UHGV virus genome: UHGV-1428848
Source of the DNA: a virus
Strand: one strand, 5' to 3'
DNA length: 64,000 bases
Below the pieces are notes generated by a model. That model was not told the origin of the DNA. It saw only the letters and a program-made list of their open reading frames with translations, and did no database searches. This document shows positions 1,610 to 43,302 of this stretch, in pieces. The translations under genes and the position numbers were made by a program. Numbering within the stretch: position 1 is the stretch's first letter; every line of letters begins with the position of its first letter.

Positions 1610-2934
1610 TTGATTTCCTCTAAATCTTTGGTGTATTCTGTAACTACATCAGTAGTTTTCCAATATTCGTTTTCTTCTTTTTTGGCTTTAGCTTCTTCAG
1701 CAAGTTTCTTTGCTTCGTCGGAAGTCATATGAAAAATATTCATTCCGACTAGTTTATCAACATAAGAAGAATACATCTCAATTTTAGAAAGTTCTTCGGT
1801 CAGTTCTTTACGAGTTTTACCCTGCACAACAATTTCACCTGAAATTACTTTCTTAATGAAATGTGCCTTGGCAAAAGCTAAACGAAATGCTGATTCAGTT
1901 TCTTTGATTTTGTTATCAATTCGTTTTTGGACATAAGTTTTACGAACTTCAACGAAGTCTTTGATTAAATCAACTACATTATCGTAAACTTGTAGTTTTC
2001 CTTTCTCATTAATAACCGTAATATTCTGAGAACGACGCTCAATCAACCCGAAGTCTTTCATAATTTTTGCATGGCGTTCTTCTTCGTTATCGCTCAAAGA
2101 GTATTCTTTGCGGAATTTAACTTTGAAGCCAAAGCCATGCTCACCACAAGCATCATCCCATGTAATGAAGCCTTTATCTTCAAGCGGGTCTAAGATTTTA
2201 CTCACATAAGTTTCACGATCATACTTATATGGAATCTCAGTGATATGCATTTGAGTTCGTGAAGTAAACTTATATGTTCCACGAATTTCATATTGCCCAT
2301 CAATTTCAACGACTTCACCACGAAATTCTGGGAATTCTACCTTCGGTTTAGTTACTTTCTTTCCTTGAAGAGCTTGCAGTACAGCTTTCTTGACAGAAGA
2401 AACACTATGAGGAAGAATGTAAGTTGCATAACCAGTTGCAATACCGGAAACGCCATTAAGAAGAACAGTAGGAATAATAGGCAAATAGAAAGCAGGCGGA
2501 ATGTGTTCTTTATCTTGATGTACCGGAGCATATTCAGTATCTTTATATACGTTATAGAAATTTTTACTTACACGAGCAAAAATATAACGACTTGCTGCTG
2601 CCTTTTGGACAGTACGAGAACCAAAGTTTCCTTGACCGTCTAACAGAGGAAAGTTATTATTCCAAGTGTTAGCCATCAAAGCACCTGCGTCTTGCGCAGA
2701 GTTTTCACCATGATGATATCCAAGGTCCGCTACACCGCCTGCGATAGAAGCGAGTTTGTGAAACTTATCTTTATTTCCTCGTGCCAAATCAAGAGCTCGA
2801 GCAATAACAAATCGTTGAACTGGCTTAAATCCGTCAATCATATTTGGAATGGCACGATTTTCAACCGTGTACATAGCATAAGCCAATGCTTCATTATCAA
2901 TGATACTTTTTAAATCACGATTATTCAGTTGCAT
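1606..2934 (-). CDS. 52: DNA topoisomerase II medium subunit (GyrA-like)
   Basis: 442 aa, same as T4 gp52; GyrA N-terminal signature region (PNMIDGFKPVQRF...); position next to motA. Confidence 0.9.
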   Translation of the reverse strand: MQLNNRDLKSIIDNEALAYAMYTVENRAIPNMIDGFKPVQRFVIARALDLARGNKDKFHKLASIAGGVADLGYHHGENSAQDAGALMANTWNNNFPLLDGQGNFGSRTVQKAAASRYIFARVSKNFYNVYKDTEYAPVHQDKEHIPPAFYLPIIPTVLLNGVSGIATGYATYILPHSVSSVKKAVLQALQGKKVTKPKVEFPEFRGEVVEIDGQYEIRGTYKFTSRTQMHITEIPYKYDRETYVSKILDPLEDKGFITWDDACGEHGFGFKVKFRKEYSLSDNEEERHAKIMKDFGLIERRSQNITVINEKGKLQVYDNVVDLIKDFVEVRKTYVQKRIDNKIKETESAFRLAFAKAHFIKKVISGEIVVQGKTRKELTEELSKIEMYSSYVDKLVGMNIFHMTSDEAKKLAEEAKAKKEENEYWKTTDVVTEYTKDLEEIK

Positions 2935-2938
2935 AAAT

Positions 2939-3079
2939 TTACCATACTAGTGAATGTAGTGCCATAATAACATCAGAAATGAAAAGCACGACTTGAATTA
3001 ATCCGAACATTATTCCGTAATATAATGCTATCAATAAAATAACAAGGGCTAATGAATAGCCCAAGATTTTCTTAATCAT
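2939..3079 (-). CDS. small hydrophobic peptide (46 aa)
   Basis: Hand-translated MIKKILGYSLALVILLIALYYGIMFGLIQVVLFISDVIMALHSLVW; overlaps neighbours by a few nt. Confidence 0.35.
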   Translation of the reverse strand: MIKKILGYSLALVILLIALYYGIMFGLIQVVLFISDVIMALHSLVW

Positions 3080-3230
3080 TAGTAGATAACAACACAAATG
3101 TTAAATATGCACACATACCCTGAGCTAAAGCTTGCGAAAACACACTGCTGGCATCAATACAGATAGTTAAAACACATGCTACTATCCAACAAATAAATGA
3201 AATAACTCCTAATAATTTTGCGATATTCAT
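3072..3230 (-). CDS. small membrane peptide (52 aa) at the position of T4 ac
   Basis: Hand-translated MNIAKLLGVISFICWIVACVLTICIDASSVFSQALAQGMCAYLTFVLLSTND; between stp and gene 52. Confidence 0.4.
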   Translation of the reverse strand: MNIAKLLGVISFICWIVACVLTICIDASSVFSQALAQGMCAYLTFVLLSTND

Positions 3231-5886: not shown

Positions 5887-5904
5887 AATTTACCTTAAAA
5901 CAAA

Positions 5905-5918
5905 AGGGCCGAAGCCCT
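5905..5918 (-). terminator. GC-rich hairpin with U-rich tail
   Basis: AGGGC-CGAA-GCCCT stem-loop, T-rich 3' on minus strand, directly after the 64-aa ORF. Confidence 0.45.
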
Positions 5919-11374: not shown

Positions 11375-11426
11375 GTTTCGGGAATATTATACTCCGGTAA
11401 TCATAAAGCTAAAGGCCCGAAGGCCT
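11375..11426 (-). promoter_or_regulatory. hairpin plus candidate MotA-dependent middle promoter for gene 39
   Basis: AGGCC-TTCG-GGCCT hairpin followed on minus strand by TTTAGCTTTA (MotA-box-like) - 12 nt - TATAAT. Confidence 0.35.
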
Positions 11427-35780: not shown

Positions 35781-36740
35781 TCACTTCCACTGCATTTCAC
35801 ATGCTAACTGAATGAAAAGATAAGCTAAATGCAATTCAGTATTAGCTGCAATACCATGATACTGATTATTTTCGCCGACAATTTCGTACATACGAATAAT
35901 ACTCTGTGGAGTTACACGTGAATAGATTTCTTCGGCAAGTTTACCCACGAACCACGAATAATCAGCTGCATATTTTGGTGCTAAAGCTCTGAGTTGTTTA
36001 ACATCTTTATTTTTGAGAGACTCAAGAACATCATCAATAGCACCACGATCGTTAGTAACCAGTGATAAAATACCAGCATCCAAAACACCTTTAGATGAAT
36101 AACTATCGAGCTCGCCAATAGTTTTACGAAAATCAGGAAAATTCTTTTTAACCAAAGCTGCTACAACTTTCATATCAGCTATAGCAATTCCTTCATGCTT
36201 GCAGATTTCAGTCAATCGACGAATCATCTGCTTCATCATTTCAATTTTATCTTCATCGGTCGGTTGACCGAACGTAATAACTCGGCAGCGTGACTGAAGC
36301 GGTTTAATAATACCATCAATATTGTTAGCAGTAATAATAATACTACAGTTTGAACTATAAGCTTCCATAAAGGAACGAAGATGTCGCTGAGACTCTGCTA
36401 ATCCTGAGCGATCAAATTCATCAATAACGATTACTTTTTGACGACCATCAAATGAAGCGGCGCTGGCAAAATTAGTCAAAGGACCACGAACGAAATCAAT
36501 TTTACAATCTGATCCATTCACAAACATCATATCAGCATTTACATCATGACACAATGCTTTTGCTACAGTTGTTTTACCTGTTCCTGGAGAAGGAGAATGA
36601 AGAATAATATGTGGAATCTTACCTTTACTTGTAATAGATTTAAAGGTTTCTTTATCAAAGGCGGGAAGAATACATTCATCGATAGTAGATGGACGATATT
36701 TCTGTTCAAGAATGTGTTCTTTTTCATTTATGGTAATCAT
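35781..36740 (-). CDS. 44: clamp loader ATPase subunit (RFC-like AAA+)
   Basis: 319 aa from MITINEKE...; Walker [11 protein letters not shown], Walker B VIVIDEFD. Confidence 0.9.
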
Positions 36741-40071: not shown

Positions 40072-40306
40072 CCTTAATACAAGATACAGCCATATCTTGT
40101 AATGATTTAGGTGTGTCATTATCTAAAATGTTGAAGTTAAAAGATACAGCCCAGTCAGTGCAGACCGTAACCTTTTTAATACAATTATCTTCAACCTCTA
40201 GCGGTTCAAACCAATATTCAATAATTTCTTTATGACCAATATCATCTTTTACTTCGCATTCAAAATGCTGACTCATCATAACATTTTTAAATTCATCAAA
40301 AGTCAT
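40043..40306 (-). CDS. hypothetical protein (87 aa)
   Basis: ORF track; 46.2 position. Confidence 0.45.
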   Translation of the reverse strand: MTFDEFKNVMMSQHFECEVKDDIGHKEIIEYWFEPLEVEDNCIKKVTVCTDWAVSFNFNILDNDTPKSLQDMAVSCIKDAYCEVFDI

Positions 40307-41322
40307 TGTGTTGCCTCTACATATAACTGATTTGCATATTGAATAAGTGCTTCACGATCAGAATCAGTGATGTCTGGAATTGCATTAATGTATTCTTCCA
40401 TCAACGTCTGAAGAGATTGAACTTCAACTTCTTCACTGTCATCTGACTCGACAGAGTTATCAATCTTTGACACAACTCGTAATGAATGCACAACTTTTTC
40501 TAGTTCAGATTCGAACTTCGTCAGATTTTTGTCTACTTCAGTTACTATAACACGTACTGATAGATTTGTAAAATCTTTATAGTCAATTTTTCCTTTAAAT
40601 GGATAATGAATTCTACGGTGCCAGGTAGTATTGTTTGGAATAAATTCCATTCGTTCTGTTTCTGTATCAAACATCCAGAACCCACGAGAGTCATTCTCGT
40701 CACCTGCAGTTAGTGTCCATGGTGTCCCAATATATCTGACGTTTGCAGCCTCAGAAATAGTATGGAAGTGACCAGACCACACTTCTTTATAAGTCTTAAG
40801 GAAATCGGGTTCAAGACCGTGAGATTTCATTCCTTTATAAAAATAAAATCCATTCAGTTCCCAGTGACCAACACAAAAAGAAGCAGAAGAAGTTTTTATG
40901 TGCTCGAGAATTTCACCAGTATTTTCTTCACACATCCAAGGAATCAAATCAATTAAACATCCGTCAAAATCTACTGTAGTAGGCTTATCATATACTTTAA
41001 CATTAGGATATTTAGCCAAAAGCTCAGTAGAGGCATTTGGATGCATTACATTTTTGTAGTGGAGATCGTGATTTCCTACAATAGTATGTAATGTGATTCC
41101 AGCATCATCAAGCATTTGAACTATTTCACGAGCAAACTCCATAGTTTTATGCGTGATTGCTTTTCGCACATCAAAAATATCACCGTATTGAATCCAGGTA
41201 GTAATTCCATTTTTCTTAGAATATTCTATCGCTTGTTTAATTCCATCAATTTGAATACCGCGAATCCACTCATCATCAGCTTTAACGCCTAAATGCCAAT
41301 CACCCAAGTTTAGTATTTTCAT
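40303..41322 (-). CDS. 47: recombination nuclease subunit (SbcD/Mre11-like phosphoesterase)
   Basis: 339 aa as in T4 gp47; calcineurin-like motifs (DWHLG, GNHD). Confidence 0.9.
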   Translation of the reverse strand: MKILNLGDWHLGVKADDEWIRGIQIDGIKQAIEYSKKNGITTWIQYGDIFDVRKAITHKTMEFAREIVQMLDDAGITLHTIVGNHDLHYKNVMHPNASTELLAKYPNVKVYDKPTTVDFDGCLIDLIPWMCEENTGEILEHIKTSSASFCVGHWELNGFYFYKGMKSHGLEPDFLKTYKEVWSGHFHTISEAANVRYIGTPWTLTAGDENDSRGFWMFDTETERMEFIPNNTTWHRRIHYPFKGKIDYKDFTNLSVRVIVTEVDKNLTKFESELEKVVHSLRVVSKIDNSVESDDSEEVEVQSLQTLMEEYINAIPDITDSDREALIQYANQLYVEATQ

Positions 41323-41923
41323 GGTGTCTTTTCCATCCTAATTTAGCTGCTTTTGAAACCAGTTCTTTAATTTTTCCTTTTGTCCATTCAGGACCAGGAG
41401 GTTCATGACATAACATTTGCTTAACTCCGTTATTATACCATTTTTTACCTTTATTATGTGATGAAGCTTTAAATTTATTTGACCTTCCTTTTACATAACC
41501 TTCTGGAATATAAGGTAAAAATGCAGATTTTCCTGTTAATGGATCATGTGAATGTATATTTCCTTTACAATTATGAGAACCATATAATGGATGATTTTTT
41601 CCTTTAATATCTCTTCCAAATGAACCTTTTGGAGCAGCATATGACATATTAAAGAATAATGGATTTTTAACTGCATCATGCAATCGTTGATAATATAACT
41701 CGCATTTAATAGCTTCTTCACGCGTATCAAATTCAGCTAAAATGCATGAATCAAATAAGTGAGGATTATCTGAAAGCTCTTTATTATAAATTTTCTTATA
41801 CTTTTTAGATAAAACTGAACCATGATATCCAGCTAAATGCCTATCTAAAGACGTAGATCCAATATAAAAAGGAGGAAGTTTATCTCCACTATATATTGTT
41901 AAATAAGTTATATATTTTTTCAT
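41300..41923 (-). CDS. GIY-YIG family homing endonuclease-like protein (207 aa)
   Basis: N-terminal YITYLTIYSGDKLPPFYIGSTS (GIY...YIG), downstream Arg/Glu, basic C-terminal repeats (GKNHPLYGSHN, HNKGKKWYNNG); 3' end overlaps gene 47 start by 23 nt. Confidence 0.55.
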   Translation of the reverse strand: MKKYITYLTIYSGDKLPPFYIGSTSLDRHLAGYHGSVLSKKYKKIYNKELSDNPHLFDSCILAEFDTREEAIKCELYYQRLHDAVKNPLFFNMSYAAPKGSFGRDIKGKNHPLYGSHNCKGNIHSHDPLTGKSAFLPYIPEGYVKGRSNKFKASSHNKGKKWYNNGVKQMLCHEPPGPEWTKGKIKELVSKAAKLGWKRHHENTKLG

Positions 41924-42060
41924 ATATCAAGAACCGTCATTGAAATGCAAAATAAAATTATTGAAATAAACCCATCTGGTGTGCTAAAGAACCCAATCCA
42001 ACATGCTCTAGTGAATAGATAAAATGCAAGAAAAAGTATCACATATCCAAGAAATATCAT
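41920..42060 (-). CDS. small membrane peptide (46 aa)
   Basis: Hand-translated MIFLGYVILFLAFYLFTRACWIGFFSTPDGFISIILFCISMTVLDI; ATG overlaps a TATAAT, so translation is uncertain. Confidence 0.3.
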   Translation of the reverse strand: MIFLGYVILFLAFYLFTRACWIGFFSTPDGFISIILFCISMTVLDI

Positions 42061-42061
42061 T

Positions 42062-42099
42062 ATATCAAACTCCGTATAAAGCTAAAGGGCCGAAGCCCT
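42062..42099 (-). promoter_or_regulatory. hairpin plus candidate MotA-dependent middle promoter
   Basis: AGGGC-TTCG-GCCCT after a-gt stop, then TTTAGCTTTA - 12 nt - TATAAT on minus strand; same module as upstream of gene 39. Confidence 0.35.
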
Positions 42100-43302
42100 T
42101 TATTTTGTAATAATGTCAAACTGTTCTTTAAAGCAGAAGCTTGAATCTTGGTGCTGATACAAAAATTCATATGCTTTTTCTCGCTCACGGTCATAAAGAG
42201 CTCGGTCAGATGACAGTTCTTTAATACGTTCAAATGTTGATTCCATATCATTTTCATCAAACCAAATGATACCGCTATCATGCGAGGTCAAAGGAGTATT
42301 ATCAACACGGAATTTTAAATTTTCGCCAGTAGATTTCCAAAATACCGGAATTGTTCCACATGCACCAAGCTCGAGATGAGTATATTCTAAAGAGCGCTGT
42401 AGATATTTTTTATCCAACTTACTCAACTGATAACCAAAACCGGATTTACTCATACGTTCAAGCATTTCGCTATTTACATAACGGTCAAGAATTTGCGTTG
42501 GCAAATTAGGAGCAATTTTAATTTGGTCTACTTGATGAAGACGATAATACTCGTATGGAATTCCTTTTTCTTTAATAGGAATGAACGCTGGAGAACGTTC
42601 CAGACCTTCCATAATAGTACTTAGTCCTGCAGGTTTAAGATGTTTTTCATGAAAATCAAACATCTGATAAAAACCTTTCCATGTAGTCGTACGACCAATC
42701 CAACGGTTGATATTCATGTTAATTTCAGAAACATCTTTCCAGTAGGTTGATCGAACCTTCGCAATATCCATAGGAGGCTGAAAGTTATATACGGTCGGTG
42801 CTTCTTCAATATCATCAAACAGAGAAACAGTTTCTGGATACCACTCTTTCATCAGAACTTTATTAAAATCACCATTATCAGAATGGCTAAAAATAACATC
42901 AGCTCGACGAACAGTTTCTTCTAATCCCAAATTTCGACGCAAAGAAAGAGAAGAATGGTCATGCTGATAAACTACAACACGAACAGAAGGTTTAATGTTA
43001 TCAATAATTTTTTTATAGTTATTAATAGTGTCTTCTTCAACCGAAGTAGCAGGAACTGAATTGATAATTAGAATATCACAATCATTTACCAGCTTAAGTG
43101 TTTTATCGTATTCTTTTGCCAATAAAACCGGAATTGAAAATGATTTATAATCATGCGCGCAATTACGAGTAAATGATTTATCTTTAGCATAAACCAAAGT
43201 TACTTCATGACCATTTTTAATAAACCAATCACGTTGCTCGAGTGAGAATTTTGTTACACCACAACCTTCAAGACCTCGAGCCATAAAAATACATACTTTC
43301 AT
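42100..43302 (-). CDS. a-gt: DNA alpha-glucosyltransferase
   Basis: 400 aa as in T4 alpha-gt; position between 47 and 55. Confidence 0.7.
   Translation of the reverse strand: MKVCIFMARGLEGCGVTKFSLEQRDWFIKNGHEVTLVYAKDKSFTRNCAHDYKSFSIPVLLAKEYDKTLKLVNDCDILIINSVPATSVEEDTINNYKKIIDNIKPSVRVVVYQHDHSSLSLRRNLGLEETVRRADVIFSHSDNGDFNKVLMKEWYPETVSLFDDIEEAPTVYNFQPPMDIAKVRSTYWKDVSEINMNINRWIGRTTTWKGFYQMFDFHEKHLKPAGLSTIMEGLERSPAFIPIKEKGIPYEYYRLHQVDQIKIAPNLPTQILDRYVNSEMLERMSKSGFGYQLSKLDKKYLQRSLEYTHLELGACGTIPVFWKSTGENLKFRVDNTPLTSHDSGIIWFDENDMESTFERIKELSSDRALYDREREKAYEFLYQHQDSSFCFKEQFDIITK

Follow-up and report, generated by a model that had tools for sequence, protein, structure and literature searches.

The closest described relatives of the gene studied here are the genes of the T4 Seg endonucleases (SegA to SegG), which are free-standing and encode proteins that have a GIY-YIG domain at the N-terminus and bind DNA through the C-terminal half. 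The same organization is found in the protein analyzed in this work, where DNA binding by the C-terminal half is presumed. Like the T4 seg genes, the gene is optional among close relatives and adjoins an essential conserved gene. However, it is orthologous to none of them, and its insertion site is the ATG of gene 47. Activity has been reported for several Seg enzymes, such as SegA and SegB (table in Edgell et al. 2010, PMC2988022; SegB also in PMC2330249). In contrast to these enzymes, the present endonuclease is known from its sequence and a structural model. I-TevI, the endonuclease of the T4 td intron, is intron-encoded and has 245 aa with a zinc finger and a helix-turn-helix, whereas the ORF described here is free-standing and encodes 207 aa; the sequence identity between the two proteins is 17-21%. 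A review table of T4 elements contains none at the gene 47 site (PMC2988022), because T4 does not carry the homing endonuclease gene (HEG). T4 was also absent among the 60 tblastn matches listed (E ≤ 1e-5), beyond which there were 114 further records. A literature search returned no paper on the endonuclease gene and no cleavage or homing experiment or report of biased inheritance. On the evidence presented below, the ORF is probably a free-standing, Seg-like GIY-YIG homing endonuclease gene capable of intron-less homing at the junction of genes 47.1 and 47.

The window, a stretch of 64,000 nucleotides of viral DNA (UHGV-1428848), is by its sequence a Tequatrovirus genome. It matches Enterobacteria phage GiZh (KT184311) at 99.7% identity over positions 41100..42300 and at 100% in the endonuclease ORF. 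The genes of the locus lie on the minus strand in the order alpha-gt (42100..43302; Pfam AGT, E=1.8e-237), gene 47.1 (41920..42060; PHROG 6693, 1.5e-31; T4 NP_813808), endonuclease ORF (41300..41923) and gene 47 (40303..41322), which encodes an Mre11/SbcD-like recombination nuclease subunit as judged from a Pfam Metallophos match and the annotations of GiZh and T4. The preliminary description, made from the sequence, had reported a 207-aa ORF between alpha-gt and gene 47 with its stop codon 23 nt inside gene 47, and a hydrophobic micro-ORF of 46 aa upstream. The ORF, its overlap and the micro-ORF were all located, the latter being gene 47.1, a predicted membrane protein. The placement next to gene 47 held, but the neighbor on the other side is gene 47.1 and not alpha-gt. 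The product of the ORF begins MKKYITYLTIYSGDKLPPFYIGSTS. The overlap with gene 47 comprises 41300..41322, and the TGA stop codon of the ORF falls within codons 7-8 of gene 47. At the opposite end, the stop codon of gene 47.1 and the start codon of the ORF overlap as ATGA. Both the endonuclease ORF and gene 47.1 are unannotated in the GiZh record. A profile search of the window ORFs of at least 70 aa gave no paralogue of the catalytic domain.

To assign the protein to a family, profile, structure and conservation data were combined, the sequence matches by themselves giving moderate evidence. The Pfam GIY-YIG model (PF01541) matched with 21.4 bits (E=3e-4), just under the gathering cut-off of 22.6, and was the only family detected in the Pfam scan of the protein at E ≤ 1, with neither NUMOD3 nor HNH found. 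PHROG 10820, labelled 'HNH endonuclease', matched at 2.6e-94 and PHROG 314, 'homing endonuclease', at 1.7e-17. NCBIfam yielded no match, and PDB sequence searches with the single protein and with a 36-sequence profile gave no relevant match. In the AlphaFold model, residues 1-90 are predicted with confidence, and the N-terminal ~100 residues form a GIY-YIG fold, with a three-stranded beta-sheet and flanking helices. The best structural matches were I-TevI, followed by UvrC, Eco29kI and T4 EndoII. By hhalign, residues 58-124 aligned with T4 SegG at 94.6% probability. Between the family profile and I-TevI, a short NUMOD3-like stretch alone was aligned, at a probability of 8.8%, so the link to I-TevI rests on structure. 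We consider that the modelled fold outweighs the near miss in Pfam as regards GIY-YIG membership. The GIY-YIG assignment of the preliminary description was thus borne out by fold and profile evidence, and its proviso that the fold might lack support was checked against the structural matches, the model and the SegG alignment, all of which support the fold. The label 'HNH endonuclease' used by RefSeq and PHROG 10820 was rejected as a mis-annotation, since the Pfam match and the structural neighbors are all GIY-YIG.

A database search returned 170 homologues, and conservation was scored on an alignment of 36 of these. Invariant in the 36 sequences were Y7, T9, Y11, Y20-I21-G22-S23, Y33, G35, S39, F57, A71, E75 and N92; R68 was present in 34. 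The residues of the GIY-YIG motif (Tyr, Tyr-x-Gly, catalytic Glu and Asn) correspond to Y7/Y11, Y20-I21-G22, E75 and N92 and are conserved. A caveat concerns the column that, aligned by eye, probably matches Arg27 of I-TevI: it is R in the present protein but mostly K, R or N in the family. Pfam detected GIY-YIG in 12 of the 36 homologues (E ≤ 0.01) and NUMOD3 in 18. Conservation was strong over the N-terminal ~105 residues, while the C-terminal halves were of several types, many of them NUMOD3. From fold and conservation, residues 1-105 are assigned as the catalytic domain. Residues 106-207 form the presumed DNA-binding domain, which is basic, as had been described before (pI 10.0; 20 Lys plus Arg versus 6 Asp plus Glu). 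For this half, which the preliminary description had called repeat-containing, AlphaFold predicts two similar beta-hairpin units and a helix with moderate confidence. In comparison with orthologues, dN/dS was 0.12-0.16 in the N-terminal half and 0.26-0.42 in the C-terminal half, with dS being saturated. As far as these ratios can tell, both halves are under purifying selection.

The borders of the element were defined by alignment with HEG-less relatives. Compared with T4, the segment 41316..41916 on the minus strand is additional, amounting to 601 bp. A 7-nt direct repeat, ATGAAAA (41917..41923 and 41316..41322, minus strand), marks its borders, so that the precise end points may lie anywhere in the repeat. 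In T4, genes 47.1 and 47 overlap at the stop codon of the former and the start of the latter (...GATATATGAAAATTTTAAATTTAGGTGATTGG). Here the same ATG opens the 207-aa ORF, and gene 47 restarts 601 bp downstream (...CACCATGAAAATACTAAACTTGGGTGATTGG). The insert contains the endonuclease ORF and nothing else, and the reconstituted 5' end of gene 47 supplies the last 8 endonuclease codons. Alignment thus places an ORF-only insertion exactly at the gene 47 ATG. By the same comparison, the insertion took over the start codon of gene 47, the weak ribosome-binding region upstream and the ATGA overlap with gene 47.1. RNA folding at the ORF start, at the T4 gene 47 start and at the rebuilt gene 47 start gave z values of +0.8 to +1.6 relative to shuffled sequences. 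With no structure better than the shuffles, sequestration of the ribosome-binding site has no support.

An optional insertion at a conserved gene junction had been proposed, with a comparison of the junction across relatives as the means of checking it. This comparison was performed on INPHARED phage records. The insert was carried by 69 of the 526 records matching the flanks, with identical boundaries in the sampled carriers, which agrees with the proposal and shows that the ORF is not ubiquitous. The insert length was 601 in GiZh, G4507, SH-2 and GEP001, 602 in ZCEC15 and 477 in KNP5, whereas it was 0 in 17 HEG-less loci. In IMG/VR, an exact-pattern scan for the 47.1/47 junction found 6 loci only, all HEG-less.

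The region upstream of the ORF was compared with the transcription signals of T4. Directly after the alpha-gt stop codon lies a hairpin (AAAGGGC-TTCG-GCCCTTT; 42084..42101, minus strand), a putative alpha-gt terminator that is marked 'dyad symmetry' in the T4 record X01804 and 'putative terminator' in the GiZh record. It is followed by the middle promoter P47 (42052..42086, minus strand), consisting of a MotA box, TTTAGCTTTA (42077..42086), a 12-nt spacer and the -10 element TATAAT (42059..42064). This arrangement agrees with the MotA box consensus (a/t)(a/t)(a/t)TGCTTtA, located 12 ± 1 bp from the -10 element (Hinton 2010, PMC2988021). Table 1 of the same review gives T4 start sites at 36576 for P47 and 5349 for P39. 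The near-identity to a module before gene 39 that had been noticed earlier is real. The look-alike (11386..11425, minus strand) is P39 (PMC2988021), and the 22-nt string of hairpin and MotA box recurs at 11404..11425 on the minus strand with 2 mismatches; the 12-nt spacer and TATAAT come next, as in P47. No match to the 22-nt string was obtained in dinucleotide-preserving shuffles of the window. The gene 39 module is another T4 junction of terminator and middle promoter and is unrelated to the endonuclease gene.

The view that the endonuclease gene has a middle-promoter module of its own was not upheld. Hairpin, MotA box, spacer and TATAAT are base-for-base identical in HEG-less T4, where the promoter is the published P47. 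From the alpha-gt stop through gene 47.1 there are 2 differences from T4, both in gene 47.1. The micro-ORF likewise proved to be no part of a cassette, as it is T4 gene 47.1 and is present in the HEG-less phages RB6, SH7 and RB14. T4 gene 47.1 occupies 36444..36584, which places the P47 start 8 nt inside the gene; by homology, the start is expected at ~42052 here. Because P47 transcripts begin inside gene 47.1, they cannot encode it. The first translatable gene on these transcripts would be gene 47 in T4 and the endonuclease gene in the present phage. The sequence comparison thus indicates that the element moved in between a resident promoter and the gene served by it.

Five other genera have orthologues that share the C-terminal domain and lie directly upstream of gene 47, either adjoining its start or overlapping it: Jiaodavirus (KP185), Dhakavirus (IME08), Roskildevirus (FBB1), Biquartavirus (L9-6) and Mosigvirus (AV116). 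The IME08 record has no annotation for the orthologue, and its gp47 is over-extended across the endonuclease gene. The orthologues of related phages belong to the same family, have the same overlap with the gene 47 start and are 59-99% identical, with no substantial difference from the present gene. In the Tequatrovirus, Jiaodavirus and Roskildevirus copies, the protein ends in ...WKR(I/H)(H/N)EN, and this tail shares its bases with Met-Lys-Ile of gp47. Several orthologues are annotated, as 'homing endonuclease' in Klebsiella phage KP185 (UNY41130) and as 'putative homing endonuclease' in phages TadeuszReichstein, FriedrichMiescher, PaulHMueller and AndreasVesalius. An orthologous annotated gene is also present in Serratia phage LC53, and the RefSeq orthologue YP_010070438 carries the label 'HNH endonuclease'. 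The endonuclease is an ordinary, Seg-like enzyme already catalogued in relatives, partly under this wrong name. The family has a modular build, with the N-terminal domain joined to other C-termini elsewhere, while the copies adjacent to gene 47 share their C-terminal domain. In Yersinia phage TG1, a paralogue with the same catalytic domain and a NUMOD3 C-terminus is located upstream of the gene for the topoisomerase II large subunit. Judged by sequence, this is in keeping with the common modular plan, where the site is determined by the C-terminal half.

Comparison of the loci further revealed four synonymous substitutions at the start of gene 47 (nt 9, 10, 15 and 18, in codons 3-6; 41305..41314, minus strand). 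The carrier allele reads ATA CTA AAC TTG and the T4 allele ATT TTA AAT TTA. Every sampled HEG carrier had all four changes, and the T4 allele was present in thirteen non-carriers of diverse backgrounds and in ~426 records database-wide. Four changes in 18 nt far exceed the flank divergence of 1.3-5.9%, with P values of 8e-5 to 0.02 in a post hoc calculation. The perfect association of HEG and allele seen in the first 18 loci was broken in the database-wide search by HEG-less phages with the carrier allele. The association is one-way: the sampled carriers all have the allele, but not all holders of the allele carry the HEG. The junction expected after excision, i.e. the end of gene 47.1 joined to a carrier-type gene 47 start, was found exactly in SHFML-26, Ec_YwIITB1, vB_Eco_BCPEco_001 and vB_Sen_BCPSen_003. 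It was found with 1 or 2 unrelated mismatches in four more phages; in UGKSEcP1 there was one such mismatch. RB14 has one of the four gene 47 changes. These HEG-less genomes with the footprint possibly arose by precise loss through recombination between the ATGAAAA repeats or, alternatively, go back to the allele into which the element originally inserted. The footprint itself is a candidate trace of either cleavage resistance or donor DNA. Since any marker within 18 bp of the HEG is linked to it, the four bases could be donor sequence that was carried along rather than a determinant of resistance.

Decayed copies of the gene were also present. KNP1 and KNP5 share an internal deletion of 124 bp, the ZCEC15 copy has a +1 frameshift, the GEP001 copy is truncated, and in ESh34 and ERS-1 the matches are broken into pieces. 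Some of the frameshifted or decayed copies could be sequencing errors. Taken together, the intact copies, the decayed copies and the HEG-less genomes with the footprint display, at the level of sequence, the life cycle expected of a HEG.

In the homing model, the enzyme would act in a mixed infection with a HEG-less relative, binding DNA through its basic C-terminal domain and cutting the HEG-less genome at or near the 47.1/47 junction, with gene 47 as the presumed target. The break would then be repaired by recombination with the HEG-carrying genome as template, so that the HEG and a few bases next to it would be copied in. The HEG-carrying genome would be protected because the insertion splits the site, and perhaps also by the four synonymous changes in gene 47. 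The anatomy, fold and distribution of the gene and the resident nature of the promoter are established by the data, whereas we infer cleavage, the position of the site, the role of the footprint and any marker exclusion in mixed infections of the kind suggested by the preliminary description.

Three other explanations were weighed against homing. The presence of a promoter-like module and a micro-ORF directly upstream, from which the ORF would be driven, had suggested a self-contained mobile cassette with its own hairpin, MotA-dependent middle promoter and small membrane-protein ORF. Comparison with HEG-less genomes refutes this reading. T4 and other HEG-less phages have everything between the alpha-gt stop and the end of gene 47.1 in almost the same sequence, with no differences in the promoter part, and the presence/absence polymorphism measures exactly 601 bp and begins at the ORF ATG. 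A non-mobile accessory gene, ancestral to T4-like phages, inherited vertically and lost many times, is also very unlikely. Orthologues at the same position in six genera would suit such a history, and the HEG-less genomes with the footprint indicate that precise loss may happen. However, the carriers have several flank haplotypes, which are mosaic like those of non-carriers. Within this one genus, where the haplotypes are unrelated, the ORF copies are still 96-100% identical to each other. The HEG-less records with the T4 allele share one junction allele, and repeated independent deletion would not yield four clustered differences. Vertical descent is further opposed by the paralogues with swapped C-terminal domains at other conserved genes and by the GC content of the ORF, which at 29.5% is below the ~35% of the flanking genes.

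Somewhat less remote, but still improbable, is a homing endonuclease that has lost its cutting activity and spreads only by ordinary recombination, either as an inactive passenger or as a domesticated DNA-binding protein that, for example, modulates gene 47. Several copies are visibly decaying, and the ORF occupies the translation initiation region of gene 47 and overlaps its start in six genera. The column probably equivalent to Arg27 of I-TevI, matched by eye, is variable in the family (K19/R9/N6/Q1/E1 across the 36 homologues). The present endonuclease, however, has R28 in this column, and the Tyr, Tyr, Gly, Glu and Asn positions of the motif are without exception in the alignment. The catalytic domain is also the half with the lower dN/dS, and the patchy distribution with sharp, identical boundaries suits active homing better.

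A further idea concerns the conserved tail ...W-K/E-R-x-H-E-N, whose coding bases also specify Met-Lys-Ile of gp47. The endonuclease lineage could be a specialist of the gene 47 5' end across Straboviridae, with a functional 3' overlap through which translation of the endonuclease would be required for, or would tune, that of gp47; we regard this as a long shot. gp47 is thought to act in the double-strand-break repair that homing uses (PMC2988022). If the idea is true, a selfish gene would be tied to the control of the recombination machinery that it exploits, and the element would be to some degree 'addictive'.

The locus reveals no new kind of system. For annotation, it permits correction of the gaps in the GiZh record, the 'HNH' label in RefSeq and the over-extension of gp47 in IME08, and it offers a defined allele pair on which the specificity of a new GIY-YIG enzyme can be examined. 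Insertion is at an essential recombination gene, a site shared by six genera. In public genomes, the complete life cycle of a homing endonuclease, from intact through decayed to apparently precisely lost copies, can be followed at this locus base by base.

The ATG of gene 47.1 is overlapped by the −10 hexamer of P47, TATAAT (window 42052..42064; T4 36576..36584). The published start site of this middle promoter lies 8 nt within gene 47.1 (PMC2988021). Because P47 transcripts start inside the gene, gene 47.1 is translatable only from transcripts reading through the alpha-gt hairpin and not from P47. The GGGCTTCGGCCC hairpin occurs in a third copy in the window at 5896..5917 (minus strand), followed by TTTTGTTTTA. 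This copy differs from the 22-nt P47 string at 2 positions and looks like another junction of a terminator and a possible MotA box.

Neither the 207-aa endonuclease gene nor gene 47.1 (together window 41300..42060, corresponding to GiZh 85679..86439) is annotated in the deposited GiZh record KT184311 or its RefSeq copy NC_054903. In RefSeq records of close relatives the endonuclease is labeled "HNH endonuclease," although its fold is actually GIY-YIG. An orthologous ORF of 205 aa, likewise without annotation, is present in phage IME08 (NC_014260, 1498..2115 of the locus L022). There, the annotated gp47 (2021..3124) carries an N-terminal extension of ∼28 aa that reaches back into the endonuclease ORF, and the true gp47 start is likely the internal MKILNTGDWHLG. 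The Tequatrovirus locus of the window was also matched at 98.5% by PV654520.1, recorded as the 142-kb "Pseudomonas phage vB_PSGBLB0006" with the host P. aeruginosa, which suggests a mislabeled or contaminated submission.

In phage RB14 (NC_012638), which lacks the endonuclease gene, the start allele of gene 47 (nt 1–18) is intermediate. It reads ATT CTA AAT TTA and thus shares a single one of the four synonymous substitutions seen in carriers; it may have arisen by recombination or as a polymorphism of independent origin.

Yersinia phage TG1 (NC_028820, 1498..2181 of the locus L026) encodes a paralogue that shares the catalytic domain but has a NUMOD3-type C terminus; its gene runs into the 5′ end of the gene for the topoisomerase II large subunit. 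Similar matches, confined to the N terminus, were observed near coordinates 4.7–6.3 kb in several Klebsiella and Enterobacter phage genomes. The TG1 paralogue and these N-terminal matches suggest domain swapping by which the enzyme acquires a different essential gene as its target.
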